DNA of 61,185 nucleotides, the filler included, from Sphacelaria rigidula (taxonomy: Eukaryota): assembly GCA_964200075.2 (NCBI GenBank). It is 8 parts of 8 records of this genome, joined end to end, with 100 filler letters (N's around TTAATTAATTAA, not from the genome) between each part and the next. Parts side by side here need not be neighbours in the genome. Positions count along the whole stretch, not along the records: positions 53,626 to 61,185 come from CAXNAA020014334.1; 7 more parts are not named here. One strand, written 5' to 3'. This document shows positions 1-61,185 of the stretch, piece by piece (within the stretch, counting starts at the first letter, position 1; each line of letters begins with the position of its first letter). The notes under the pieces are model-generated. The model saw only the letters and a program-made list of their open reading frames with translations. It was not told where the DNA came from and made no database searches. Made by a program: the position numbers and the translations under genes.

Positions 1-57
1 CCCCCCCCCCCGCCCCCCCGGCAGGTGCGGCGCGGGGGGGGGGGAGTTTTTTGAAGG

Positions 58-93
<36 letters not shown>

Positions 94-99
94 CGAGGA

Positions 100-165
100 C
101 GTACTGATTCGCTACTTGCCTTGATCGCTTGGCCATTGACCACGCATCCCTTTCAAGACGGAGCA
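100..165 (-). mobile_element. Ultra-short 3'-tip copy of the LINE at 56193-61095, between G-tracts
   Basis: Its reverse complement matches TGCTCCGTCTCGAAAGGGAT..GTGGTCAATGG..GCAAG..GAAT.AGTACG at 61026-61091; long G runs lie on both sides. Confidence 0.85.
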
Positions 166-2152
166 AGTGGCGTGGGGGGGGGGGGGGTGGCGAGAGCGGG
201 GATGAAACTGTTTTCTTATATCGTACATGCCCACTTCGCTCTGAAGTATGAGAGCAGTCCCAGGCTTGTGCTCATTTTTCTCGTGAAAGTTTGCGAAAGA
301 GGTAAGGTATCCTCCTCGCGCTGTAGAGTATACGTTTTCAATTGCGATTTCAGCGACAAGTTATGCGGCATATCGTGGTGAGCTGTCGATGGTGTGATGT
401 ACCGATCAATAACAAGCGTACACTTCATCCAGTCTCTTTGTTGGGGTCTAACCGTCGGTAGAATGGTGTTGGCACCCAAGAAAGCGGTGTGTGTGTGTGT
501 GCGAGCGATTTTTTTTGTGTTGTGTAGATCGTGTTTGCCCCTGACAACCGTGAGCAGCTGTGTGCCCCATCATCGAATATATGTGCCGAGTTTTCTGGAC
601 CGCCTTTGTCCCGTTTTGTGCATTTGCTGAGCATGCACTGCGAAAACATCTGCTTCAAGCAAAGGAGCGATTTTCGAACAAAACACTAAGACAGCTTGTG
701 AGGATGGACGTCGCAAGTGCTCTTCTTGGTCACCCTATATTTACTCACATTGCTCCCGGGTGCGCTACTCGTCGTCAGGATAGCCCCAGCAAAAGAGTAA
801 GAAAATAATATCCGGAGCAGACAGCACGGACACGGAGCAGCAACAAAACAAGGCACAAAATGTGTGTCTCCTGCATCCCCTTCATCACCTAAGATTCGGA
901 GTGAACGGCATGGATCGGGTCAAAGTATGACACAGGAAGTCGGTTTCCTGCCAACATGCAACCACCTTAAAGTGCACCGCGCGCTCTGATCGGCCGTTGT
1001 GGCACTTACTTCATTTTACGGTGTCCTGGCACATCACATAACGCCCTGCTGGCGGCAGTCAAGGACGGTTTGGTACAAGAAAAAGTTCTTGCTCAGTTGT
1101 TCTGCTAAAATATAGTGCGACCGTTGTTGACAATGAGGCAGAACAAAATTTCCTGTTTTGACGTCAAGTTCGTCCCAGTTTGGAATCAATGGATAGCTCA
1201 GATATTGAGGACAACGTATACGGCAATGTATGCGATTTCCAATTCAGTAAGAGGATGTACATTATCTTCGATTGTTGACAATCTCGAGGTTTCAGAGTCG
1301 AGGCCTTCGATTTTGAGGATGGGAGTGTATATTGTCCACTCGGAGGCCGTCAGGTAACTGTATTGTTTTTTCCTCTTCGTTTGTTTTCTTGAGAAGTAAA
1401 GACGAACTTTCATATCGGAAATGCAGTTGAATTGAGCTATAGAGTACTTTGAAAAAACATCATTCGGAGGCGAAATGGTACGGCACGGCCTTCGACAAGT
1501 CGATTCGCTCCTTTCCTCAAATTTCCCGTCCCTAAATCTCACATGTCGAGCGAGAACTCATGAAGCCACTTCGTGGTCCCCTGCTCTCGGACCAGCTGGT
1601 ACTGAGACTGCCGATGGAGAAGCCGAGGGGGCACACTGGTTATTTCATTTGCCCGATATCGGGCTGTAGTAGAGAGCATTATCGCAAGTTGGGCGGTGCT
1701 CGCCTTCATAGGGGTTTCATGTACTTTGAGTGCTCTCCTTCTACTGTAGTATCAACGGAAAAGGTGAAAATTTCGGACACCTTCGAGCCGTCGATGAAGC
1801 CCTGCAACCTACGCACACGACGTTATCACAGCTCGGATTCCTGACGCGCTTTTCCCGTGTGACTGTAAGGTACCCCAAGGCTCTCAAACTGGTGGCAAAA
1901 ATAGTCAAGTGAGAACCTGCCCTCAACAGCACACATGATGTGTGACCTCGGAAAGTCGAGCCACGATTTCCAGTCCACACTAAAATCGAGTGTACGACGC
2001 TCTCGAATTAATGCGTTCACGCGACTGATAGAAATGGATCCTTGCACCAGATGTACCGAAAATAATCCGTCCTGCCTACACGAACGGTTTGGTTGTCGAT
2101 CGTTTCGCTCCTCGTCAACGCACGGACGGTTATTTTCTGGAACCGTGACTTG

Positions 2153-7415: not shown

Positions 7416-7504
7416 TTGAGGTCCCCTAGGTCCATCCTCAAAATTCCTGCGCATGAACAATACTGTACAGTACAAACAGCGTTTTCGTGATATTGAGAGT
7501 ACAT

Positions 7505-7561
7505 TAGTCAGCGTCAGAAGTATGCAGAATCCGTAATTTCTTAGTTTCTCAAAGATTGTCC
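7505..7561 (+). repeat. Dispersed repeat, nearly identical to 38115-38171
   Basis: TAGTCAGCGTCAGAAGTATGCAGAATC.GTAATTTCTTAGTTTCTC.AAGATTGTCC occurs at or near the end of two contigs. Confidence 0.8.
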
Positions 7562-20713: not shown

Positions 20714-22804
20714 GATAATTCTTCGCGGAACGGTGATATTTTGCAGAGAACCTCGACCCACTGCATCGGCATGCGATCTGCATGCTACCGCGTTCTGCGC
20801 TCTGAAATTTGCCGGCATCGATTGCTCCCGGAACAATTTGAAAATGGTATGGGGATCAGATTAATTATGAGCTTAGTACAGGTGCAGTACAGGAAGAACA
20901 GTAAAGTGGTGGCAGCACAGCAGTGCGGTCCTTTGTGCACCTGATGAGAGGTACAATATCTCAAACTCAGCGTTTCTGTATGTTGAACAGCAACTGTACG
21001 GTTGATGGAAAATAGTTCAACCATGGTATGATTGTCTATGCGAAACGGTCTTGCAGCGCGCGATATGACCTACTAATATAGCTGCAGTCGGATATGCCGG
21101 AATCCTGGAGTTTGAAACAACGATGCGCACACGTGACCGCGCGCAGAACCGGCTCTCATGCCGACCAGACGCCGGTGCAGTTGAGCGAGCCTCTGCTCAA
21201 CAACAACATCGCAAGGACCGCATGTTCCTTCTGGACTCTCGGGCGGCCATGACCGCCCACCGAAATATTGCAGGACCAACCACCGCGATCACGCGTCCGT
21301 TCGAAGGGACCCGAACGCGAGCGTATGAACGTTCCGCTCACACCCACATTAAATGTAGCACGAAATGCGCGGACTGGATCCCTAGTATTGGCGTTCGCCC
21401 GAAGAGTCACCCCCCGGGGCAAGCGCGGAGGAACTTCCTCACAAAAATTAGCGTAAATCTTGTGGACGCCTCCCTACAGAGTATTTTTGGCGCTCGTGAG
21501 TCTGAAATATACTACATATACTGTAGTATACACATGAGTCAAGACCAGTGCGCATGGCATGGGGCCGGCATGTCGAGAACCCTGCGCCAACTTCGCCCTG
21601 TACTCCTGGATACGGACCTTTTTTCAGTAGCAATCACTTGCGATGTGTGCTGCGACGGATCTCGTGCGTGATGCGGCTTTCCCGTGAAGCCAGCTGCTCG
21701 TGCTGAAGAGCATCCCCTCTTCCCACGATGACCTCTTCCTCTGAGCACAAGATAATTGAAACCGCGGGACATGAGTCAATCTACTAGAACGTGCACATCC
21801 TGCAACGTCTTCAATGGAGATGCCTCCATGTTATGGGAAATGAACAACACTGGTACATAATTTATGCCTTACAATGTGCATGTAGTAAGTACTAGCTATG
21901 AGCCGTCACTTGAGGCCAAAGTTGTAATCACCCCAGTATATAGGACAATGTTTTGTTGGTAGTGGTTTCGACTTCACCCCTCATCATTCCTTCACGGCAA
22001 GGGCATATTACAGCAGCACTTGACTGTATTGGCAGCTTTGTGTCTTGGGCCATCGAGCGCAAGTTGAATTGCCTTTGCAGGCAGCGTGTGGATGGATATA
22101 TAACCTACTATGTGCACGGTGTGCGAGCATAGAAGATGTGACCGAAGCGACCGCTCGAAGCAACGTAAGAAGGGTGGCGGTTTCGCCGCACATGGTTATC
22201 CAAGCTTACTGGGCCTCCCTCGTACTTCCACTTGATGTACTTGATGCAGCAGCTATCACAGCATGCGCGCACTTGTTTGGAGTTTACATTCTGTCGGCCA
22301 GCCTTCGTATTCCAAAGCCAGGGAATCACTCTACAGTCGGCGTCGTGTACGGGCTGTGTGGGAGTATTCGGGCTGGCTAGGGCTAGTCTTGACGCCCGGG
22401 TATTTGTAAGGTTGTCCAGATTTTGTGGCATTGTCTTATTCACGGCATGGATGAAATCGCGTCGAACCTTTCAAAAAAAAATTCTGATCATCTGCAAGTC
22501 ACGTGCATATCTGCAGTGTTCCACTGTACCATGTAGCGCAAGAGATTTTTACATTTGATGCCAACACGGCAGTATCCAGAACATAACGGCCTAGGCGTAG
22601 TTCGCGCTGAAGTCAAGTCTATTGAGATTTGAGCCACTTTTTCCGACATGTTCTCGAACTTCGACCAAGGTATTTATTTGGCGAGGTTTATATAAACTTG
22701 CCAAACCCTTCGCAATAAAACGCTGATGTTCCCAAGGTCATCCACCCCGCCTTGGCAGCGTAGGATGTATTATGAGAGTAGTAGTCTCTCGCGCTGGTCG
22801 CCGC

Positions 22805-22883
22805 GGGGGGCGGGGGGGGGGGGGGGGGAGGGTGTGGTCTTGGTCTTGAGGGTGGTGGTCATGTGACCATTGATTTTGCGGGA
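22805..22883 (-). mobile_element. 3' end of a putative C-tailed retroposon (third variant)
   Basis: Reverse complement reads TCAATGGTCACATGACC...ACACCCTCCCCCCC, sharing the TCAATGGTCA..GAC motif; truncated by the contig end. Confidence 0.45.
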
Positions 22884-31319: not shown

Positions 31320-32052
31320 GGACAGCGAGCCTTGTCTCGGAACAGTTTCATAGGCTGAAACTGTTGACAGTCCGGAGACATTGGAGGGTTTCCAGTGGCC
31401 TGGGGGGGGGGTCGAGGATGGGTGTCTGTGCGCAGAGCAGCCGAAAAACTCACCAAGTCAACCATGTGTGTTTGGAAGTTTCCCGCGCAAACTTCGAAGC
31501 CAGGACCAAGCCCTGAGAGGCGCGGAGTGATCATTCTGACCAATCACGGCCGTCAAAATGAGCACGTTGTCCCCCCACAAGTAGACTAAAGGTGGTGGAC
31601 TACTTCGCTGTCTACCGGCAGTTCTCAATTTGGTCATGGCAAATGAACCATAGATTACATGGGTACAAGTAACTTGTTTTGTACTCTGCTCGAGCTCTGT
31701 GCTGCCCGTCTGACGCCTCATGTGTTGCCAGCATAGCTTCACACTGTTTGTAGTGTTGTTGAACACTAGGCAGAGTCATTGGCAGCATGGAGTGAGTTGT
31801 GCTCAGTGGAGAGCGATGTCACACTAAAATAATCCCGTCTCTTGCCGTTGCATCCAGCCGAGACATACAGCACATATACATACCGCCTCTGCGCGCAATT
31901 GACTGCAGGGTCAAAACTGGTCAGGGGTTCTCCGGGACTATCTTCACATAATCATGAAAAAGGCGTTTTGCGTAGCGAGAAAAGAGCTGCTCTCAACCCC
32001 CAAATGGCATTGTCCAACTCAGTCCACCTGCGGGGGGGTCGCTGTCTAAGGG
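31320..32052 (+). mobile_element. piggyBac-like non-autonomous element (family of 53706-54599), left tip missing
   Basis: Shares the ~280-bp left arm (GACAGCGAGC...CATTCTGACCAATCACGG) and the right end GGGGGTCGCTGTCTAAGGG|TTAA. Confidence 0.75.
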
Positions 32053-34500: not shown

Positions 34501-35440
34501 TATGACATTCAACCACGCAATAATATGCACACTTTGTTCGACTTGAGGACGATGTATGTTGCGATTTATCCGCCATCGTACGTGAATTTCCTCGCGCTGC
34601 TATGTGCACCGTATAGCATGCCATGTAGTAATGATTGCTTGTTGTATCAGTTGAGTTGCACACTCTATGAATAATGACGATACAACTGATTCAATGAAGA
34701 TATCAACGTTGGAATTACATTTACCACGAATATTGCCAAGAAATATTTTTGACGAAAATCAGCCGTTGAAATACTTGGAATGACTGAACGAACGACCTAC
34801 GAAAGTGAGATGTGTTGCTATGACAGGAATACTCCAAGGGCATGTCGGATAGGATACACCCGATATTTTGGTATTTTAAAAAGTGGAGATCCGACCCATG
34901 CCCACAGCAGCCGCCAGCCTAGTACTGTTGCTCCCCTCTCTATGCCCATACAAGTCAATGTTACTGACTTGAGCAGGTGATGTGCGACTTTTCAAAATAC
35001 CACAATGTCGGGTAAACCCTCCCTACCTGACATGCCCTTGGAAATATTTTGCGGCTCTCGAGAAAAGAAACCGGCATATTCAGCCCGTCAACTACTCGAA
35101 TGTGATGCGTCTACTGCCGCATACATTTACAGTGGCTCCAGTGAGGGTTCAAAAGATCGAAGCACTAAAAACAGATTTACAACCAAAAACATGCGCAGCG
35201 ACCGAGTGTGTCTCCGCCCGTCCTGATCTAAAACCAAAGCACCCTTGTGTGACTACGCCGGAACGCTTCGCGAAGTTGTAGCTCATCGACTACTGTAGTC
35301 ACGGGATACTTGCTCTCCTGCTGCTCACACGGGTCGCGAGCTTTACTTCGCTGTCGTACTTTTTCGCGTTGCCATGGGTTTGTTGTGCTATTCGAGCAGC
35401 GCAGATATCATGAAGTGTATCGTATCATTCTAGTAGGGGG

Positions 35441-35487
35441 GGGCGTACTCATTTGTTGCTTGCCTTAGTCATTTGACCATTGACCAC
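35441..35487 (-). mobile_element. 47-nt LINE 3'-tip insertion with a perfect 15-bp TSD
   Basis: CATTCTAGTAGGGGG at 35426-35440 and 35488-35502 flanks the reverse complement of the LINE end GTGGTCAATGGTCAAA...GCAAGCAAC.AATGAGTACGCCC. Confidence 0.9.
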
Positions 35488-35519
35488 CATTCTAGTAGGG
35501 GGTAAAGCGAGGAAATTTT

Positions 35520-38018: not shown

Positions 38019-38205
38019 CTCAAAATCCCCCCCCCCCCTCCCGTTCCATATGCAAAATAATTGGTCCTCTTCGGGCCGAACACATCACAGCGCTTCGCGC
38101 TTGGTGATTTACAGTAGTCAGCGTCAGAAGTATGCAGAATCTGTAATTTCTTAGTTTCTCGAAGATTGTCCAAAAATGTTTTGCTTGCCACCGCTCATCA
38201 CGGTG

Positions 38206-38305: not shown

Positions 38306-38337
38306 CTCATGGGGGGGGCGTTCTCATGGGGGGGGGG

Positions 38338-38398
38338 CGTTCTCATTCGTTGCTTGCCTTAGTCGTTTGACCATTGACCACGCATCCCTTTCGAGACC
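38338..38398 (-). mobile_element. LINE 3'-tip copy with a reiterated C-tail unit
   Basis: The reverse complement encodes LRSRKGCVVNGQTTKASNE*, close to the LINE C-terminus. On + it is preceded by (CTCAT-Gn-CGTT) twice and followed by a G-run. Confidence 0.88.
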
Positions 38399-40620
38399 GT
38401 AGTTGGTGGGGGGGGGGAAGAAGTATATAATCCTGCAGACGCGCAAGCTTGCACGTCGCTAATCCTACGGGCGAATGTGGCATCTTACTGTGCTGTAGCT
38501 GCGGCGTACTATTGACGTAGCGTAAGCCAAAGAAGTCGCACATCTCTGCGTTCCTGCACCCACCACAGACCGCAGTTTTACACCAGGCCAAGTTTGACAG
38601 CTGGGTCTGAGAGTGTTCGAAATTCTAGTCACCAGGTCGCTAAATATGGCTCCCTGAACCCGGGGTTGATTTTCGTGTCGAGAGTGTATCACTGGACTCG
38701 ACGTTAGGGTGTACACTGTTTTCGATATGTTTGTGCGCGTCGACCGCGAGTCGCGAAGACTAGACTGATTCAGTGATGAAAAAAGCACCGGTGAGGCCTC
38801 TGAGCTTTCAATCTTCCTGGAGACACGCGCCGCACTCTGCAGAAACGGTGCGGGGAAAGATCAGCACACCTATCTGACCAAATCGCTATGTACGTTGAAT
38901 CGTTCCTACAACAGCTAATTTCAGCGGCTTGCAGAGGCCGACCGTCTACATGCTGACATTGTGATGGTTTCCGACCCCCGTGAAAATTATTTCTGTTACA
39001 TGAGGTCAAAAAAGAGGAAGGAGGAAGGGGGCAGGAACCGAGAGATGCGCCACCCCTGGCCTAGGCTTGTCACTTTATAGCGTCACTTCTTCATCCGAAC
39101 ACCATGTCTAGGGTCCCGTGGTGCCTCACACCGAATAGAAAGTGAAACATTATCACACGCGTCATCTTGTTTCGGTCAGAAATGCTGACATAGACCACGA
39201 CTGCACGTAGTAAACCAACCGGCAGCACACATGTAGGATGACGCCCACAACCAAGATAGTCACCAGCAGCACTAACTCAACCCGTGGTACATCCTCCGCA
39301 ACATTATTAGTAGAGGCCATTTTATGGTATACACTAGGGAAAATATGGACATACTCGGGTTCAGTAGTTCGTCGCAAAATGAGGTGTGACATTTCTTACT
39401 TTGCGTACGTCGCATGCTGTTGGAGCGCACGCCCACGATACCTTTATTCGTCCGCCAACGCGAGAAAAGTTTGCGTGTTAGGAGTATCCATTATTTTCCA
39501 ACCTGTGGAGCTGCCCCTACGTATTGCTTTACCGAAGCGGCCTACCCTGTTCGTGGCCTTCGCGGTTTTCCACCGGGTGAAGACGATCAGCGTGACAGCG
39601 ATGACATTCAGCGTGCACTACCACGCGATTGCACAGAGAATGAAAGGGGCCGGAACCGACGACCGGGATATCTCCGTCACTCCGGCGACGGACTGATCCA
39701 CTTACTCACTCTAGCTCCGTTGAAGCGTTCAGCAGCGCGTGTAGAACTCGGAGCTTTAAGGCCTTCCTCGTGCCTGTCGTTCTCTTGACCAATAAACAGA
39801 GCGATTTTACCCCGCCATTGTGTAACAAGCGTTGCCGGGAGCGGCTTTCGAGCAAGAGCGAGGCTGCGCAGAACGCGCCACAAGCCTGCCTTGTTTCGGA
39901 GGCGAAGGTCAACACGTGACAAACCAAAAGACAACAGGGGAACGGAAGTGATTACTCGATCATGGCGAAGCTCGATGATGACGAATAAAAAGGGCAGATG
40001 AGACGCCGTCGACCCCCGAAGTCTAGTTGTTCCTTCCAGGAGAAGTAACGGCAGGTTTCTGTACTCAGGATGTGCGTCAACGCATCCGGCGAGATTTCAC
40101 TTCACGCCGCAGTGATGACTGAAACGTGGCAGTGCGGGCCGTTACAACGACGTGGTACTACACGTTGCAGACCCGGACTTTGAGAAGTGCACCCTATGGG
40201 AGCGGTGTGCCGTGCGCCTACTGATCCACGAAAGAGAGCACGTGGTATTGTGACGTGGAACATTTCCCAAAAAACGTAAATATCATTTATTTCGATCTTT
40301 CTCTGCAGATTCTCCCCTGTGCTAATTTTCTTCATCTCTCCATACCGCTACGAGGTGATGGGAGGGGAGAAAACATAAGATTCTACATTTTAATGCCAAC
40401 TGCGTACCTACCTGAAGTTCTGGGGTGCTGGAGCAAAGCATCCCTGAGCACATCTCTTCCAAGATGAACTTGCCGCTGAGAGTCCCGGAGTCGCGCAACA
40501 ACAAGAACAATAGCAGGAGACAGCCGGGGTGTTTGCGTGATCCGGGGTGTTCGAAGCCAGGGAGACGAGCACGCACGCGTCAAGAGGAAGTCAGGAAGCG
40601 ACGGGTCTTCTAGTGTGATT

Positions 40621-40711: not shown

Positions 40712-41035
40712 ATGTCTTTCCCAAGTTTCGTCGTGCGATATGAACTAGTTTAATTGATTGATAATGTTCTTAATTTTTTTTTCCTTAGTGCGATATAACT
40801 TGGTGCGAACGTAATATATATATATATATATGGTGTAGGGCGTACAGTACACACTACTCACCCCTCAGCCGCAAACTGTTTGAGGTAGTCAGAGCGGTTG
40901 TCCGCGTGTTGTACGTTTCTGCACAGGCTGAACACGAGGCCGACTGATAACACCTGTCAGCGATCACCCGAAAGATGACGGGTTGTTGCCACCGCAAACA
41001 ACCACCGATGCGCGCATTTGCTTTGGGCGGGAGGG

Positions 41036-41099
41036 CGTACTCATTTGTTGCTTGCCTTAGTCGTTTGACCATTGACCACGCATCCCTTTCGAGACGGAG
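41036..41099 (-). mobile_element. LINE 3'-tip copy in a G-rich site
   Basis: CGTACTCATTTGTTGCTTGCCTTAGTCGTTTGACCATTGACCACGCATCCCTTTCGAGACGGAG, flanked by GGGCGGGAGGG and GTGGGGGAGCGGGGGGGG. Confidence 0.88.
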
Positions 41100-44000
41100 T
41101 GTGGGGGAGCGGGGGGGGGGGAGGTGAGGTGTACCCATCATTTTGTATTAGTAGTCCTACGATAGCCCCGCCAAAAAATGTGGTTGATTTGGGGAGGCAT
41201 AATCTACACATAAATGGTTATGAAAAAAGCCGAGCACAACGAGCAGCTGGGAATTCCCACGCTTGGGATCTTTCTCGCCAATGTCGCCCATATTAAGCGC
41301 TTCATGCAGCCTGACACCAATTGTCATGCACTGTATGATCCGTTGTAAGCCGATGGCCGATGGACGATGGCCGACACCTCGAGATTCACAGCACTGGTTC
41401 GCGGTGCATTCAAGTCGGCCACTCCGAGGGCTGCGGTATAGTTCTATTTTTCTGCGCATGCGCTTCGCTTCGAAGGGTACCAGTAAGACCGGTTGTGAAA
41501 CAAGTGACACGCGTACCAGGCGACAGATTTGACAACAATACAACAGTTGTGCTTTCGGTCAAAAGCATCGTCCCGGGGATATACACAGCGACATACCTTC
41601 AAATAGACCGTGCTGACATGGCTAGACGCAGCCCGCAGGAGAGCAGGTGCAAGGTTAAGGTGCATGGCAAGGATGGCCACGTCGGGTTCCGAAGAACACA
41701 GCTGGCACAGGGTTCCCACCGCTAGTGTCTTGATAAGTACGTAGCAGCCCTCGCACGGAAAATGTAACATTGACTGATGACGCCGTATCCTCGAACACGA
41801 AATGAGGATATACACGCAACGTGGGCGAAGTCATTGTGGGATTACGACGCCAACGAACTCTGTGGTCGAGAACTCAGCTGTCAAGATTGTCGTTGTGCAC
41901 TCAGTGCGCTGAGGCGATAAAAGCGGAGGAAGGGAAAGTCCCTCAGGGGGACTGTTTTTTTTTTATTTCACGCATCATTGGACAGGATATCGTTCGAAGT
42001 GGTGAACCACTTGCATGTGGAGCTGTTCTGTTCGACTGGACCCCGATAGGGGTGCCAGAGCGCTGCTATACGGAAGGTACATATCTTCGCCGCAAAGTCG
42101 GCGACAGTTCTGTCCATGTCATCCCCACCTAACCGTCATTTCACAGCAGAGAAGGTGATGCTGTACGTACCGACTGCTCTACACAGCTGAACTATAATCT
42201 TGGTCCACCCTACCATGGAACCAACAACGATAGCAACTACTAATTGTTCAGACCCGCGCCCTCCACTACTGACCACGCATAATGTGTGATAGTTCCATAC
42301 CAAGATGTGCTCATCAAACTTTCACACGGCGATCGACCAATCCAATGATCCGTGTACGCACCACCAAGACGTGCAGGCCGCCCTTCATAGCCAACCTAGC
42401 CGCGTTGTCGCGATGGCATGCGAGAAGCCAGGCGGTCGCCAACATCCTGCAAACAAGAGGAAGTCGAAGAACGAAACAAAACACCGGGCGGTCGCGGTGA
42501 AAATCAATAGAGACACCCGCAGTAAGGTCAAAATACGCACATCTGCGATACTGCGCGCGTTTCTCGCGACTTGTGTCTCTTTTCGGTCGGGCGAGGTGTG
42601 GGATGTGGGATGTAGCAGAACGAACAGCCTGAGATACGCAACGGGGTCGATACGCTTTATGTAGCGTCAACGGTTTTGAGCGTCGCGCTATTGGAACGAT
42701 TGTTATCTGCCTCGCCGCGCCGATTTACGAGATGATGTCGTTGATGCCGCCTGAGTGGAACAGCTGATTTTTTGTCGTTTCCCGTAACTCAGCTACAGGA
42801 TTCGTAGGCAGCTTACGTTCGGTCGAGCCCTTCACATAGACACAGTCGCATCGTGATTTCTCACCCTTCTTTTAGCCCCAACCTCGCGTTTGAGCGCAAG
42901 CCATCAAGGAGTCCATCGATAGCCCACAGTCGCCCGAGCAACTCGCGATACTCGGGTCGCCGCGCCAGCAGCCATCTGCCACCAAACACTAGTCGAAATT
43001 TTTATTAGTCTAACTCGCCAGGATATGAAAGGCCACGACACCCCACGAAAACCTCTAGAGGTAGGACGCGGAAAGTATCGCGAATAATCGTACCCACACT
43101 TGAGTTCACTCACAGGGGACAACTGCGTCAATATGGTTTCATCAGTACCCTACTCATCTTTCAACCATACACCTGTTCTTTCTCGAGCCACGGTCAACGT
43201 CGGTAGAGTTGCTGTGGTCTGGCGGATGTTTCACCCCCCGGAAGCCCCATATGTCACGCACGTAGCGTTCAAGATTATCATGCGTCCACGATTGTCACGA
43301 ACACGCCCAGACGATGTCATCTCGACAAAGCTGCCCCGTAACGTAATTTAGGTGGGTGTCTAGGATGTGCGCGATGTCCGTGGATGATCTTGAGACGTGA
43401 TACGACGGAAAAAGGAAATATCTGGGCGACGGTACGCAGGAGGAGAGTGTAGTACATAGCCGGTGAATGCATAAGAGGTACGGCGCAGTACATTACGCAC
43501 ATTGTCCATGTGGTGTAGTCAAGGACCTGCTCGCTCTTGTGACCAAGGGTCCACACAAGCGAGCTGACTTGTTTCTGCCCCCAGCCTTCGAGGCCCGATC
43601 CTACCCTCCCGTCGTCCCCATTGGTGCTATCATCGCAGTGACACAGGTGCATGATACTGCATGCGACGGTACTATCCATTTCGGCGCTGCCAAGGTGCCC
43701 CACCAGTACATGCTGGAAGCCACGCGGGAGAAAGAGATACAAGTACCGAGGGAAAGACGGGGCGGGTACACTGCAAGTGTCGATCACCTCCGCATTGTAA
43801 AGGCTACTCGGTTAGCAGGCGGTACACGCAAAAAAGGAACATATACCCAGGCATGCAGAGCGGAATCCGAAGGGAGGGAGCGTCACACATTGGCTGGATC
43901 AAATACTGATTCGTCGATACGCACCATTCGCACGAATCGATAACAACTCACACATTGTTGGCACTCGTGATTCGTGCGGTGACGGCATGGGCCATACAGT

Positions 44001-52100: not shown

Positions 52101-52409
52101 CTGGTGCGTTGGTGACTTTCATGGAACGAATTGGTTGATTGATAAGCTGGTTAATTAACGTACACTATTAATGACTGATACCCAGGAAATCCAGCTACGG
52201 TCGCAACACGGGTGTACATGAGGTAAGGAATACAAACTTCCGCTGAAGGGAACTCTCGAAAGGATCTTCAAGGTCCTAGTCATATGGATGACATGGGCCA
52301 ATACACGGCCGTATTTTTGAAGGATCCCTTGCAGGACGAGCTAGGAAAGGAGGAACAAAATATCTTCAACTTACTTTACGAACAGTAGCACAGGGAGGGG
52401 GGCGCGCGC

Positions 52410-52595
52410 GGGGAGGGGGGGGGAGGGGGGGGGGAACTGGTGCTCTTGCATGCCGTAGTCACATGACCATTGACCTCGCATACCTACAAAGCCGGGACGA
52501 AGCATGCCGGGTTTCGTCTGACCAGGCTCGCAATCAATCACCAAGCGCGGAGCGCCGTGCTGTGTTCGGTGAGTTGCATGAAGTGTGAGAAAAGA
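52410..52595 (-). mobile_element. Second C-tailed retroposon family (SINE-like or sister LINE 3' end)
   Basis: Reverse complement ends GTAGGTATGCGAGGTCAATGGTCATGTGACTACGGCATGCAAGAGCACCAGTT followed by C-runs; homologous to 52981-53137 and 61136-61185. Confidence 0.7.
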
Positions 52596-52980: not shown

Positions 52981-53137
52981 AGCTCACCCTTCACGCGACT
53001 CGCCGAATACGCCACGACGCTTCGCTCTTGGTGGTTGATTGCGATCCTGGTCTGGCGAACATCCGGAGTGCTCCATCCCGGCTTTGTAGGGATGCGAGGT
53101 CAAGGGCCACATGACTATGGCATGCAACGGGTGTACT
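52981..53137 (+). mobile_element. Second-family copy, tail-to-tail with an inverted fragment at ~53145-53194
   Basis: GTGCTCCATCCCGGCTTTGTAGGGATGCGAGGTCAAGGGCCACATGACTATGGGCATGCAAC resembles the LINE 3' end. Confidence 0.65.
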
Positions 53138-53525
53138 GATGATCTTGCATGCCATAGCCATATGGCCCTTGCCCTCGCATCCCTACGAAGCCGGAGGGGA
53201 GGGGGGGATGAGGAAACTTCGCGCTTCTGAAACGACGGTGCGGAGGCACGAGTCAGGCTATCTAGCTCTCCCCATGCGAAGCGCAACGGCCTTCAGTCCA
53301 GCAGGTACGTACGTCGTAGTAGTGCGGGTGGGGTATTGAACCCAGCAGGCCTTTTTTTCTCAGTACCTTCGAATAGATCTCGTACAGGCGAGGAGGTCAA
53401 TGCTCGCTGAGCAGACTTTTACTTGATTAAGTAGCAGTTAACAACAAATTGTGCGAATTGAGGTTTAACTTTGAGATGAGGCTCAAGCCTAAAACAGTGT
53501 CTTCCCCACACTTTCAGCGATGGTG

Positions 53526-53705: not shown

Positions 53706-54599
53706 CCGTTAGACGACGAGCGTCGCCTCGGAACAGTTGTACAGGCTAACAGTTCCGAGACATCCGGGGGTTTCCAGAGCTCGGGGGTGGAGGTTTTTGA
53801 GGGGGGGGGAGTGTCTGTACGCAGAGCACCGGAGAAGCTCACGGAGTCAATCATGTGTATTTGGAAGTTTCCCGCGGAAAATTATGAGCCGTGCACGAGG
53901 CCCGAAAGGCGCGGGATGACCATTCTGACCAATAACGGTCGTCAAAATGAGCACGTTCGTTACCGTAGAGGTAGATACCTGTTTGACACATTCGCTGTCT
54001 ACCCTCATAACCCATTTTGATCATTCATAATCAACCATAGATTATATAACCAACACGCAGGTGTTTGAGCATATTCGGTACACTGTTGTGTCTGTCTGTT
54101 CAGTACTGCCTGAACGTCGTACTAGCTCCACACCTCCATCTGGTATCAAACGTCATGGCGCAACACGCGAGCGGCGGCAACGAGTACCCGATGCAGGTAG
54201 ATGTAGACAAGTACTTCGACGGTGAGGCGACCGCCATCGCCGAGCAATTGCTCACGGTAGCCAGGGGCGTTCGCGGCGACAGTCATGGTGCGATATTCAG
54301 ACGCATGCTGCGTACATTCGGCACGTTCAACACTGTAAGATCTAGTACGCTGCAGATCGCACGTGCAGCCGCGGCACGGTACACTACAGACCGCACAGCA
54401 AAAATATGAGGCGTTATAATCAGGGGGTCGACAACCACACCACCGTCTGTGTTATGACGCAACTATGTACCTCTCATGCACTCCCGGTCCCTTCCGCCGT
54501 AGAGTAGGCGCGTTGTGAGTTGTGACAAAGGAATGATCTCGAACCCCAAAAGTGTAGTGTCTACCTCAGTCTACCAGCGGGGGGGTCGCTGTCTAAGGG
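53706..54599 (+). mobile_element. 894-bp piggyBac-like non-autonomous element
   Basis: TTAA|CCGTTAGACGACGA ... TCGCTGTCTAAGGG|TTGA. Confidence 0.8.
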
Positions 54600-56192: not shown

Positions 56193-59100
56193 ATGCTGGT
56201 ATCCAAACCCGAAACGAAGGACTTCTTTGTGGGCAACATCTACATTCCCCCAAAATTGAAGAGTAGGGTGCACGATATACAACGGAGGTTTGGAGAGATA
56301 GCAGAAGACGTATATAAGTATTAAAGGCAAGGGAAAGTAATGTTAGTGGGAGATTCCAATGCAAGGGTAGGAAGAGCAGGTCAAGAAGCACACGAAGGAG
56401 TGAGGTATAAAGTTCCTGGAGCATAACGAGACGAAGACGCTGAACAACAGAGCACAAAAGCCAGAGGCGCAATGGACATGGACTCGAAGATGCAAAGACG
56501 AGAGAGAATGCTCCGTTCTTGACTATACAGTGGTGGAGCATGGAAATAGTGAAGAAATGGGAGTAGACGTCTGCGCGGAGCACGTGGGAATCACAGATCA
56601 ATGCCTAATATGGACAGAAAGCCAACAACAGACCAGAGCTATTTAAGATAAATGGGCGGGGTAGGAAGTTGTACAAATGAAGAATCGATGAACTAGATAT
56701 ATATGGGAAAAAAAGAGGAAGAGTTCCAAGAGGAGACGGCCAAGAATGCAGCGAAGTTTGCCGAGCTGTTGGAACGCGTAGGTACAATTGATACCGGAAT
56801 GGGAAGAAATTGGGCAGGAGGGGCGAAAATCATAATAATAATAGAAGGATGGGAGCAGTTGGTCAAGAACACAGCGAGTAAAGTCATAGGGAAGAAAGTG
56901 ATCGTATGCAACAGAGTAGTAAAATGGTGGGATGAGGAAGTGAAAGAGGCTATCAGAGTAAGGAGAGAGGCCCACCACGCGGGATGGATGTCGAGCGAAA
57001 CTACGGCAGGATAAGAGGAGCATACTAAAGCTCGAAAGGAAGTAGAGATGGTACAGCAGAAAAAGAAGGGAGTATGGAAAGACGTCGTGAAAAAAACAAG
57101 TGAAGATTTCGACGGCTGGATGAGACAAATGTGGGTGGGTAGGGATAAAAAGGATAACGGGAAACCAGACAGGAACGATACGTAGACAAGGGGATAGCTA
57201 CACTCCAGGCACAGAACGATGAAATGGTCAGTAGTTCGAAGGGAAAGAGAGAAGTGCTAGTCGAGCACTGCCCTAAACTATGAACACCAAAAACAACCAC
57301 GGAGTTCGACATGGAATTCGAAATAGAATCCAACGCGTGAGCAGAGGCAAATGTAGAGACGTCAAAACAGGAGGGTAGAGTCTCGAAATAATTGCAGAGA
57401 GAATTCACCAGATATGAAGTAAAGGGGTGCGTAGCTAAACTCAAGAACAGAAAGGCAGCAGGGACAGACGGAATAGCGAATGAATTTATCAGGTACGGGG
57501 GAGAGGGAATGATTACCGTGGTGGTTATTATGCTGTAAAGCTGGATCTGGGAAACGAGCACACGCCCAAAAGATGTAGAGAAGGAGTAGTTGTCAACCTT
57601 TTCAAAAAGGTAGACAAGGCTGACCCAGGAAAATATAGAGGAATAACGCTACTGAGCACGGTAGAGAAAACGTTCTGCAGGATTCTGAACGAAAGAGTAG
57701 GTACGATGCTAGAAAAGGAAGAGAAAATCTTCAAGGGACAAGCAGGATTTCAACGAAACCGTAGTTGCATAGACCATGTGTACACACTAGGTAAGATCGT
57801 TCGGGGTAGGAAAGACACCGGGCGGACAACGTACTGTTTCTTTCTAGACGTGCAAAAGGCTCATGACATAGTATGGAGAAATGGGTTGTGGGGAAAGTTG
57901 TGGGAAGCTGGGATCACAGGAAAGATATGGAGAACGGTGAAGATGATGACAGAATATGTGCCGAAAGTGCCATGACGCTAGACGGGGAAATATCGAAATG
58001 TTTCAAGGTTGTGCTCTGTAGGGTACGATTTTCTGTATACCCGGGGTATTTTGACGGGTATTTACCGTCCCCGACAGTTCTGTAAACTCTGTACGACTTT
58101 CATACCGGTACCCGATAGTTCTGCAATCTCTGTAAGACTTTCATACCCTTACCCGATATTTCTGTAATCTCTCCAAGACTCCCGTATCGTTACCGGGGGG
58201 CACGAGTACGCTCTTGATAAGATACCTGATTGCGGGTACGGTTTTGTGTGCAACTTCCATATCCCACCCGACAGTTTCTGTGAGATCTGTAAGCCTCCCA
58301 TACCCTTACCCAACAATTCTGTGAGCTTTGTACAGAATGCTTACCCGTACCCGGAGCGCGGGTAACCTCTTGAAGAAATACCCGATTGCCGGTACCGGTT
58401 TTCTGTAAGTCTCCCATACCGTACCCGACAAGTTCTGTAATTTCTGTAAAACTTTCATCCAGTACCGGTACCCGACAGTTTTGTGAGCTCTGCAAGCCTC
58501 CCATACCCCTACCCGGAGTTAACGTATACCGTTTTAGATATCCCCGACTGCAGGTATGAGCACAGGTATATACCTTGGGGAGGTACGGATATAGGTTCAA
58601 TCCAAACCCAACCTCATGACCTGAACATGTACCTCCCATCGATCAACCCACACAACTCCTTCATTCAAGACTGCACACCAACAATAATTCAATGTGAAAA
58701 AGTTATTTCGTTCGGGATCTGACGGGATACGAGGTACCGCTCAGTGGGAACACGAAACACAGCCCTGCAGACCGTCAGGATGCATCACCCCCAGACTCAA
58801 GTGATCTCTCGAGCGGGGGCGCGGTTCATCTGCCCCACCAGGGGATCAAGTAGCAAGACGCACGTCATCAACGTTGATGGTGGTTGTGTCGTGGCCATCA
58901 AACCCCAGGCCGTTACCGACATGTACGGCATAGACTATAAGCTGCCACCGAAAGTCGTAAAGGCAGTCGGCGAGTTTGTCGCGTGCCAAAAGGCTTCCAG
59001 AGAATGGGCAGCCGTGAATGCTTCGTGTAGGCTTTCTCTGTCAACCCCGTGAAGCCGTTCAGAATTTTCGTGAACTTTCATCTGTATTTCGCCACTGTTG

Positions 59101-61095
59101 TAGTGACGTAGGTCTCACCACAGGGGTGATGATAATATGTAGGGTACGGTTTTCTGTATATCCGGGGTATTTTGCCGGGTGTCTACCGTACCCGATAGTT
59201 CTATAAACTCTGTGAAACTTTCATACCGATACCCGCAGTTCTGTAAGCTCTGTAAGACGTTCATACCCCACCCGATAGTTTCTGCAAGTTCTGTAAGCCT
59301 ACCATACCCTTACCCGATAGTTTTGTGATTTCTGTACAGAATGTGTACCCCGACCCGAGGGGCGGGTATGCCCTAAAAGAGTTGACCGATTGCCGGTACC
59401 GGTTTTCTGTAAGCCTCCCACACTGTACCCGACAAGTTCTGTAATTTCTTCAAGACTTTCATACCGGTACCCGACAGTTCTGTAAAGCTCTGTAATACTT
59501 TCATACCGGTACCCGACGGTTCTGCAAGTTCTGTAAGGAATCTCATACCGTACAGAACGTACCCATACCTTACAGAACACAATCTTGAAGTGGTTTGATA
59601 TGTTACAAGGAGTTGCACAAGGATGTACGTTATCACCCACTTTGTTCAAGGTAATCATTAATGACTTGATAATAGCAATAGAAGCAGCAAAGCAAGAGAT
59701 CAGCGTGGGTGAAGTGGGTAAAGATATGGTATCAAGATTGATGTTCGCGGATGATTTTGTGGGGATTTCAGGAACACCAGAAGGATTACAGACACCGATA
59801 GACAAGGCGCTAGAATGCACTAGGAAATGGAGAGTGGCAGCGAACGTTAACAAATGCACGGTACTCGTCTGTGACGAAGGTAAGAAAATTCTGGTAGAGT
59901 TCAATTGAAAGTAGGACGAAGAGAAATTGACGATCGTAGACCAGTATACATACCTTGGCGTAGATCTCTCACAAAACTGTTCTTGGGATGGACACATGAA
60001 CAAAGTAATAGAAAAGGGTAAGGCACAGATAGGCAAGTTGGACGTGATCTTCAGAGACCCGCACCTAGACGCTAGGATCAAGAGATGTATAATGATGAAC
60101 GTGATCGTGCCAAAGCTGGAATATGCAGGAGAAGTATGGAAGGGGAACGTGAAGTTGGTGGAGAGGTTGGAAATAGTGCAGATGGCAGCAGCTAAGAAAA
60201 TACTTGGATGCTCGAAAACGACGAGTAATACTGCAATGAGAGCAGAGTTGAAAATGTACTCACTTGAAACAAACAGAGACATGAGAAAATTGCAATGGCA
60301 ATATAGCTGACACAGCATGCAGAGAGGGATATATATATTGCCAGCTGTAGTTGATCGGGCTGTACGGAAGAAAAGTGCGGAAGGGAAGGCTGGAATAAGG
60401 GGGGATAAAGAAGTCGAGAAAGTGTGGAAGGAGATCGGAGGAAACCAGGACGAAATACTGTCCATAGATGAAGGCGTGGGGTATAAGACAAAAGCAAGAT
60501 ACATGATGGAAATGAGGGGAAAAGGAGCGCTCAGACGCAAAGTTAACGAGGAAGAGCACCTGAAGATATACGGGCAGTTGAGAGAAAGGATAGGGATGAA
60601 AGCATATTTGCATGGCCCAATGAACGCGGCGAAAAAAATGAAATGGTGATCTCGGATGGGGGACCTACACCTGCCAGAAAGAAGAGATTTACCAGTCGTC
60701 GGAAGGAGGAGAGAGTAGATGGGCGGAACTGCCCCTATGGCAAAGGAATCGAGAGCAGAAGCCATATAGTGGAAGAATGTGAATCATGCAAGGAGGAACG
60801 GGACGTGCTAGAGGGGGAAATGCGGGACGTGAACGAAGATGGCATAAAACCGTTTGATACATTAGACAGTAGGGAGAAAACGATGGCTATACTAGGAGAT
60901 AGATGGTGGCCAGAGACACTGAAACAGGACGGGGATAAGATATGTGACCGGTTGTTGCGTAATGTATCGGAAAAACGTAATGAGCGCCGGAATGTTGGAG
61001 GTGTCGCTATTAGGAGTAGGAACGGTGCTCCGTCTCGAAAGGGATACGTGGTCAATGGTCAAACGAGTACAGCAAGCAACGAATGAGTACGCCCC
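56193..61095 (+). mobile_element. Decayed, 5'-truncated non-LTR retrotransposon ORF2 (APE endonuclease, RT, C-terminal zinc-knuckle-like motif), tentatively RTE-like
   Basis: FFVGNIYIPP and VMLVGDSNARVG (APE); KAAGTDGI, DPGKYRGITLLS, QAGFQRNRSCIDH, FLDVQKAHD, QGVAQGCTLSPTLF, MFADD, YTYLGV (RT); CPYGKGIESRSHIVEEC. Many stops and frameshifts; ends ASNE*-GTACG-C-tract. Confidence 0.93.
58004..59587. mobile_element. 1584-bp TIR element inserted in the LINE RT, built largely of ~40-bp tandem units
   Basis: CAAGGTTGTGCTCTGTAGGGTA vs reverse complement of the right end CAAGATTGTGTTCTGTAAGGTA. Flanks AAATGTTT / AAGTGGTT match at 6/8. Removal rejoins LDGEISK-WFDMLQGVAQG. Confidence 0.88.
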
Positions 61096-61135
61096 CGTCC
61101 CCCCCCCTCTCCCCTCATGCGGCTCCCCGCACACC

Positions 61136-61185
61136 CCACGGCGCCTCGCGCTTGGGGATTGAGGGCGAGCCCCGTCCTGCGAAAA
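61136..61185 (+). mobile_element. Second-family fragment shortly after the LINE C-tail; truncated by the window end
   Basis: CACGGCGCCTCGCGCTTGGGGATTGAGGGCGAGCC matches the reverse complement of ~52525-52560. Confidence 0.6.

Follow-up and report, generated by a model that had tools for sequence, protein, structure and literature searches.

The window analysed here is a stretch of 61,185 nt from the brown alga Sphacelaria rigidula (assembly GCA_964200075.2), composed of eight pieces of 7,560-7,561 nt with N44-TTAATTAATTAA-N44 spacers between them and a GC content of ~0.49. Its last piece carries, on the plus strand, a degraded copy of a long interspersed nuclear element (LINE), which we call the master copy. 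The open reading frame (ORF) of this element stops 5 nt short of a run of C's that stands where a poly(A) tail might be expected. We find this feature to be real and unusual, and to be the true 3′ end of a LINE of the apurinic/apyrimidinic endonuclease (APE) type from a brown alga. The features of the master copy are as follows.

56214..61091, plus strand: 5′-truncated, degraded single-ORF LINE encoding APE-type endonuclease (EN) and reverse transcriptase (RT), the master copy (tblastn, Pfam RVT_1, frameshifts and stops).
57955..59569, unstranded: foreign insertion splitting the RT domain, with ~41-nt tandem-repeat arrays (tblastn gap, TRF, self-blast).
60965..61091, plus strand: 3′-terminal module made up of the final 119 nt of the ORF together with its stop codon and GTACG, a candidate cis recognition region (identity with the intact copy L001, codon test).
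61084..61091, plus strand: TGA stop codon (61084-61086) and a 5-nt 3′ untranslated region (UTR), GTACG (61087-61091).
61092..61107, plus strand: C-rich tail, C5 GT C9, CCCCCGTCCCCCCCCC; homology with L001 stops here.

The body of the master copy is decayed. In a tblastn alignment P0002, a full-length homologue of 1360 aa, matches 56214-61083 with its residues 273-1360, apart from a break at 57955-59569, and Pfam recognises RVT_1 at 57484-57972 (E=3.7e-10) and at 59537-59905 (E=5.3e-11). Of the endonuclease, the C-terminal part alone is retained, from P0002 residue 273 onward, and the Pfam search of the window gave no EN match on the master copy. An earlier reading made from the sequence alone (hereafter the sequence-only reading) had described an ORF2 ending in STASNE-TGA; that ending is confirmed, but the ORF is a 5′-truncated pseudogene, disrupted by frameshifts, in-frame stops and an insertion of 1.6 kb. 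Within the ~1.6-kb insertion, ~41-nt arrays at 58063-58194, 59184-59323 and 59425-59550 lie on both sides of a unique centre.

The better-preserved relatives of this copy reveal the organization of the family. A query consisting of the RT and C-terminal part, with X at three stops (P0001), retrieved 33 proteins, the closest of which are single-ORF APE and RT proteins at 61-64% identity to what is a decayed query, and the named matches are each an "unnamed protein product [Ectocarpus sp. CCAP 1310/34]". P0002 and P0004 (1328 aa) are one protein each, with EN followed by RT; RVT_1 matches P0002 at E=9.8e-31, and PF03372 and PF14529 lie upstream of the RT in the full-length homologues P0002 and P0010. 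A search of the PDB placed the RT at the level of LINE reverse transcriptases generally (L1 ORF2p, 6.6e-21; R2, 8.8e-20), and together with the ESM Atlas it confirmed a LINE with EN and RT and nothing finer. We assign the family by its RT, the EN of its homologues, its 5′-truncated copies, one target-site duplication (TSD; further TSDs are ambiguous) and its lack of long terminal repeats to the APE-type LINEs. Matching features link it to the kind of brown-algal element catalogued in Ectocarpus as RTE-X. The brown-algal single-ORF homologues share the C-terminal pattern ...APSRKG.VVNG...ASNK: P0002, P0003 and P0004 finish in ...APSRKG.VVNGQMTKASNK and P0006 in ...VVNGLTAKACKT, and because these four proteins end alike, the position of the ORF end is conserved in the family.

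In the master copy, frame 0 ends ...GQTSTASNE and the C's begin after TGA and GTACG, as the sequence-only reading had described. A scan of 60900-61185 found no AATAAA, no ATTAAA and no run of six or more A's, and C-runs occupy the place of the poly(A) tail and polyadenylation signal of an L1-like element. The absence of an A-tail was thus correctly reported, while the accompanying statement that short-repeat tails are missing does not hold for one short copy, c38 (see below). The same terminus is repeated in L001, which was found with a degenerate tail pattern in a prokaryote genome collection where it matched a sole contig, CBRFFM010000043.1. The L001 ORF is open across all 1,649 nt of the locus read (510 codons from the first ATG, 511 from the locus end) and terminates in ...VVNGQMTKASNK, TGA, GTACG and C13, followed by unrelated G-rich sequence. 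Nucleotide identity between L001 and the master copy is ~0.75 in the ORF's 3′ half, rises to 0.88-0.97 within the final ~125 nt and drops to 0.43-0.48 directly past the C-run. The contig is filed as a metagenome-assembled genome of an uncultured bacterium yet carries a eukaryotic LINE, and is probably mis-binned. The flank beyond its C13 tail (L001 1-112) is strikingly G-rich (GTTGGGGGTGGGG...GGGGGTGGGGG).

Shorter copies of the same 3′ end occur elsewhere in the window, where self-blastn detects exactly four, all on the minus strand.

41025..41121, minus strand: c41 (41036-41099), with tail CCCTCCCGCCC (41025-41035) and an upstream C11 (41111-41121).
38306..38417, minus strand: c38 (38338-38399), with a tandem tail (38306-38337) that the piece end truncates and, upstream, C10 (38408-38417).
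45..187, minus strand: c0, an older copy (100-165), with a C-rich tail that includes C33 (45-99) and an upstream C14 (174-187).
35426..35502, minus strand: c35 (35444-35487), with a C8 tail (35436-35443) and 15-bp repeats at 35488-35502 and 35426-35440.

These copies are 44-66 nt long and all stop at one point, reading ...TGAGTACG, TGAGAACG or TCAGTACG; what follows is CCCTCCCGCCC in c41, C10 in c38, TCCTCG and C33 in c0, and C8 in c35. The shared end point and its C-rich continuation, both remarked on in the sequence-only reading, are therefore upheld by self-blastn and by inspection. Counting the master copy and L001, six ends share the ...TGAGTACG-like sequence and a C-run, and nothing is common past the C-run in the five readable flanks (master, c41, c0, c35 and L001), that of c38 being cut by the piece end. 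In six of the seven ends examined, the 12 nt beyond the end are at least 75% C, a composition found with P=0.003 at random positions; the exception is the diverged copy B53, at 0.42. The copies cease to be homologous at the C-run, which therefore marks the true end of the element, and a variable C-run 5 nt past the ORF is thus its last part.

A technical origin would have poly-G or poly-C arise spuriously at the ends of reads or contigs, and three of the tails are indeed located at piece ends, and C/G runs stand at the start or end of some pieces. The runs of c41, c35, S52 and the master copy, however, are internal, with ordinary sequence on either side, the independent assembly that holds L001 shows the same junction, and the runs always read as C on the sense strand of the element. 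We consider an artefact the least probable of the explanations weighed here, to the point of being nearly negligible.

A further possibility is that the C-run is internal and that the 3′ UTR of the LINE extends further, from 61108-61185 onward, the short copies being fragments. In its favour, the sequence that follows the run in the master copy recurs at 52437-52589, at 52983-53127 and partly at 38076-38109. That sequence, however, belongs to a small non-autonomous repeat of ~153 nt plus a C tail, here called S, which is found elsewhere with its own tail and C-run and without a LINE body upstream. The stretch past the master C-run is the head of an S copy and not unique flank. The flanks of c41, c0, c35 and intact L001 are likewise unrelated past the C-run, and the longer conserved 3′ UTR that the sequence-only reading had named as grounds for abandoning its proposal is not seen in them. 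The idea of an internal C-run is already contradicted by these observations and is very improbable. The S copies are listed here; a partial one lies at 38076-38109.

52400..52589, minus strand: complete S element (52437-52589, ~153 nt) with a C10 T C9 tail (blastn, alignment).
52983..53199, unstranded: tail-to-tail inverted pair of an S copy (52983-53127, plus strand) and a diverged tail-only copy (53135-53199, minus strand) preceded by C7.
61108..61185, plus strand: S head, cut by the window end (blastn, alignment).

S consists of a ~90-nt head, then ~65 nt that align with the last 65 nt of the LINE, then C10 T C9, and alignment of the copies at 52437-52589 and 52983-53127 shows that this terminal ~65 nt is all that S and the LINE share. 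Rfam at gathering thresholds and ARAGORN gave no matches anywhere in the window, and the S head is not a recognisable tRNA, 5S or 7SL sequence. In the inverted pair, just 3 G/C separate the S copy from the tail-only copy.

The extent of this shared module has a parallel in the short copies. Three of the four (41036-41099, 38338-38399 and 100-165) begin within 6 nt of one another, at the equivalent of 61026-61032 and ~64 nt from the end, and S turns LINE-like at the same boundary. Random 5′ truncation does not predict such clustering, which hints at a site where the RT tends to stop, a point of RNA processing or the smallest module that is mobilised. A tail-profile search picked up three other, diverged tails at E<1e-4, namely 53080-53129 (plus strand), 52446-52493 (minus strand) and 53134-53196 (minus strand), and six further matches with E>1, of which one (22856-22873) was kept as a weak lead since C17 follows it.

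22800..22883, minus strand: weak diverged tail-like sequence with TCAATGGTCA, then C17 G C6 and the piece end (nhmmer, E=1.8).

Several lines of evidence point to a candidate signal for recognition of the RNA within the coding sequence, as the sequence-only reading had proposed. Over the final 119 nt, L001 and the master copy agree at 38 of 40 third codon positions, compared with 300 of 449 upstream (Fisher p=5.5e-5, in the L001 frame), so that constraint in this region apparently goes beyond the protein. Because the 3′ UTR has just 5 nt, third positions are conserved and S shares the ~65-nt module, a cis signal in the coding 3′ end is plausible, and from these alignments the module plausibly measures ~65 nt, perhaps up to ~125 nt, overlapping the coding sequence. 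The proposal thus gains support from the sequence comparisons, but not from RNA folding, in which no convincing structure was found. A conserved 3′ stem-loop was considered, and we do not claim one, the results of RNAalifold and of single-sequence folding being unconvincing.

The insertion sites provide the evidence on how the C-run may be used. Copy c35 is bounded by a perfect 15/15 direct repeat, CCCCCTACTAGAATG, a TSD that starts with C5. The run comprises 5 C's in the 5′ copy of the TSD, and on the 3′ side 8 C's lie between GTACG and TACTAGAATG. Four of the five short copies have a run of at least five C's whose end lies 8-10 nt ahead of the 5′ junction (C11 in c41, C10 in c38, C14 in c0 and C5 in c35), and in the fifth, B53, a C7 run stops 1-4 nt before the junction. 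Runs of at least five C's lie 3-12 nt upstream of random positions at a rate of 0.00876, which puts the hand-computed binomial probability of four or more such runs in five copies at ~3e-8. The insertions therefore sit just downstream of pre-existing C-runs, and the single clean target duplication, that of c35, starts with that run. Across the window, 14 of the 35 C/G runs of at least 7 nt are no more than 60 nt away from a tail module and read as C, in zones that make up 3.3% of its length. The sequence upstream of c41 at 41122-41160 (minus strand), ...AATGATGGGTACACC..., resembles by eye the terminal motif of another tail, and on this reading c41 may have landed in the C-run left by a very short copy of greater age.

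LINE reverse transcriptases such as that of R2 can add untemplated nucleotides at junctions. The C-run could have been added without a template: ahead of templated synthesis, the RT or a host enzyme would extend the nicked DNA with G's or the 3′ end of the RNA with C's, and the run would be neither target nor template. The variation in tail length between copies, from ~3 to >30 C's with interruptions, agrees with such addition. It leaves unexplained, however, both the C-run 8-10 nt upstream of four of five copies and the one within the c35 TSD, and we regard it as distinctly unlikely. The tail of c38 shows a further kind of variation: it consists of 2.3 copies, running up to the piece end, of a 19-nt unit in which ATGAGAACG, the final 9 nt of the element, is followed by C8-10, and it could have arisen by RT re-initiation, by slippage, or by DNA-level slippage between C-runs.

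Alternatively, the family may simply target C-runs: the RNA template would end ...GAGTACG, insertion would be into an existing (C)n/(G)n tract, and all of the C's would be target DNA. C-runs on the 5′ side of four of the five short copies, besides those on the 3′ side, agree with this, and APE-type LINEs that target microsatellites are established for ACAY, AC, TC, TTC and TAA (PMC3812793). The 8 C's on the 3′ side of c35 against 5 on the 5′ side argue otherwise, as does c38, which repeats ATGAGAACG and its C-run without the ~10-nt target spacer expected of sequential insertions, and the published notes on the Ectocarpus relatives call the terminus "(C)n 3′" (PMC12477816). Targeting alone is improbable on this evidence, albeit less so than the other alternatives. 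Because known microsatellite-targeting LINEs usually carry the repeat as their tail too, it overlaps the reading that we prefer and is hard to separate from it. All of the alternatives are less likely than that reading.

The reading that we favour, with a probability of roughly 0.7, is that of an RTE-X-type terminus at which an oligo(C) RNA end primes on a nicked G-run, with recognition inside the ORF. The endonuclease of the element would nick the bottom strand at a G-run, and the exposed oligo(G) 3′ end would pair with the oligo(C) at or near the 3′ end of the element RNA. The final ~65-125 nt of the RNA, which are also coding, would keep the RT in place, and it would start cDNA synthesis there. 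The top strand would be cut ~8-10 nt beyond the C-run, and because of this offset TSDs would be 15-24 bp long with C's first. Each insertion would leave a new or longer C-run and hence further targets, a renewal that could account for the tandem and nested tails and for small non-autonomous partners with the same 3′ module. In target-primed reverse transcription (TPRT), a TSD that starts with C on the sense strand means that the bottom-strand primer ends in G's, and C-first TSDs fit the prediction of priming from a nicked G-tract on that strand. The geometry is that of L1 with C:G replacing A:T, and microsatellite-tailed stringent LINEs follow the same principle. The sequence-only reading had suggested such priming: the C5 of the c35 TSD and the upstream C-runs in four of five copies fit it well, while the pairing of RNA with DNA is a step that we infer from them.

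Several observations weigh against this reading. A clean TSD is present in one of the five copies tested (c35 among c35, c0, c41, B53 and S52; c38, whose 3′ flank is cut by the piece end, stood outside the test). The candidate for c0 is a displaced 20/21 C-rich match, and the matches of c41, B53 and S52 are 10-11 nt long and chance-like. There is no C-run near the 5′ junction of the master copy, which makes that junction uninformative, and its 3′ flank is another repeat, so that its TSD is unreadable. That the C's belong to the RNA template we infer from the 8 versus 5 C's of c35, a difference that homopolymer slippage after insertion could equally give. The synonymous-site test compares two sequences, one of them a pseudogene. 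Finally, RNAalifold on nine tails yields an 11-bp interrupted hairpin with 1 compensatory pair at -4.06 kcal/mol, and the stability of four single-sequence folds does not exceed that of shuffles (z -0.05 to +2.0).

A more complete version would join these elements: the C-run would be an obligatory, template-encoded pairing tail, the endonuclease would be specific for G-runs, recognition would reside in the last ~65-125 nt of the ORF, and the targets would be self-seeded. We advance this combination tentatively, as a proposition a little short of even odds. If it is true, brown-algal RTE-X elements perform the annealing step of L1 by C:G instead of A:T pairs and without polyadenylation, ~40% (14/35) of the long G/C homopolymers in the window are associated with the family, and the common 5′ end of the ~64-nt tail-only copies marks a defined RT stop or RNA processing site.

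The proposed mechanism probably creates many G/C homopolymers, and these break short-read assemblies. At the piece boundaries (1, 22883, 38306, 45865 and 61185), several pieces begin or end in C/G runs or RTE-X tails, and the underlying assembly may tend to break at such homopolymers. Pieces of the window also have other repeat families in common: the same C-run-containing sequences occur at two loci, 31402-32038 and 53801-54585, spaced ~630-780 nt apart in each, and the ends of pieces 1 and 5 (7490-7561 and 38110-38170) are homologous.

The terminus itself has a prior record. In the curated transposable element library of Ectocarpus (Genome Biology, 2025), RTEX-1_Ec32 (5,867 bp) is annotated as "single EN-RT ORF; (C)n 3′" with a "C-rich" TSD, and the supplementary table gives RTEX-2_Ec32 "(C)n termini/TSD" and a "C-rich" TSD (PMC12477816). 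Non-autonomous partners are listed as well: RTEX-N1_Ec32, of 607 bp, is noted as "5′ head unknown ... can be present in tandem" and "60 bp 3′ end 83% RTEX-1_Ec32/RTEX-2_Ec32", and RTEX-N2_Ec32 has 188 bp. For the RTE and CRE families the table gives the endings (CAA)n and (CA)n (PMC12477816). The suggestion in the sequence-only reading that such a terminus might be new is therefore overturned, since it had allowed that an existing catalogue entry would settle the matter. The available main text of that paper contains neither "C-rich" nor "homopolymer" and does not discuss the tail mechanism, nick site or coding overlap (PMC12477816), and the accessible portions of the Phaeoexplorer preprint and of other brown-alga genome papers make no mention of LINE 3′ ends. 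Our literature search found no paper on the mechanism of a C-tailed LINE, the catalogue note being the sole record; the (C)n terminus is already known and, as far as that search shows, the mechanism is unpublished. Our window thus adds supporting detail rather than a discovery, namely the geometry of the nick site, constraint at synonymous sites, the common 5′ end of tail-only copies and the tandem tail units. RTE-X elements and their partners are the most abundant LINEs of Ectocarpus (7 families, 16,418 copies, 3.41% of the genome; PMC12477816), and because they are so abundant there, the tail mechanism shapes brown-algal genomes.

Compared with RTEX-1_Ec32 and RTEX-2_Ec32, the window LINE has the same type of host, a single EN-RT ORF (in its homologues), a (C)n 3′ end and C-rich TSDs; it is likened to them by these described features and not by consensus sequence. 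The best protein identities, at 61-64%, would accord with a brown alga other than that of the catalogue, although the query was a decayed copy. The resemblance extends to RTEX-N1 and RTEX-N2, which are likewise small partners with an unknown head, a shared 3′ end of ~60 bp, and tandem tails or partners, and S, at ~153 nt plus its tail, fits the 188-bp RTEX-N2_Ec32 by size, the sole ground of that likeness. With mammalian L1 the family has in common APE and RT, 5′-truncated copies and a TSD whose first bases match the homopolymer tail, a match that implies pairing of primer and tail; its RT also resembles human ORF2p (E~1e-20). L1 nicks at TTTT/AA and its poly(A) pairs there. Here, in contrast, the homopolymer is C, so that the tail must be encoded or added otherwise than by polyadenylation, and since a C tail cannot come from polyadenylation, the family must both make and recognise its 3′ end differently from L1. 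In this sense an oligo(C)-tailed LINE provides a natural control for the requirement, in TPRT, that the nicked target pair with the RNA 3′ end.

The module shared with a partner points to sequence-specific, stringent recognition and not to recognition of the tail alone. "Stringent" LINEs have a 3′ module in common with short interspersed nuclear elements (SINEs) and can carry terminal repeats such as (TAA)n or (TGTAA)n, whereas the "relaxed" L1 uses poly(A), and the simple-repeat tails of the stringent class are thought to aid initiation or slippage (PMC3747384). Like eel UnaL2, with (TGTAA)n, and the Drosophila I factor, with (TAA)n, the family combines a 3′ module shared with a SINE-like partner and a simple-repeat tail; unlike them, its repeat is of one nucleotide, its module lies in the ORF and not in the 3′ UTR, and no well-supported stem-loop was found in it. 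The microsatellite-targeting APE LINEs Waldo (ACAY), Mino (AC), Kibi (TC), Koshi (TTC) and Dong (TAA) (PMC3812793) offer the other parallel, in that they too insert at or into a simple repeat that matches their own tail. The family of the window differs from them in its repeat, (C)n/(G)n being absent from the 2013 list as given there (PMC3812793), and in its targets, which are short (5-14 nt), dispersed C-runs, many of them apparently made by the family itself.

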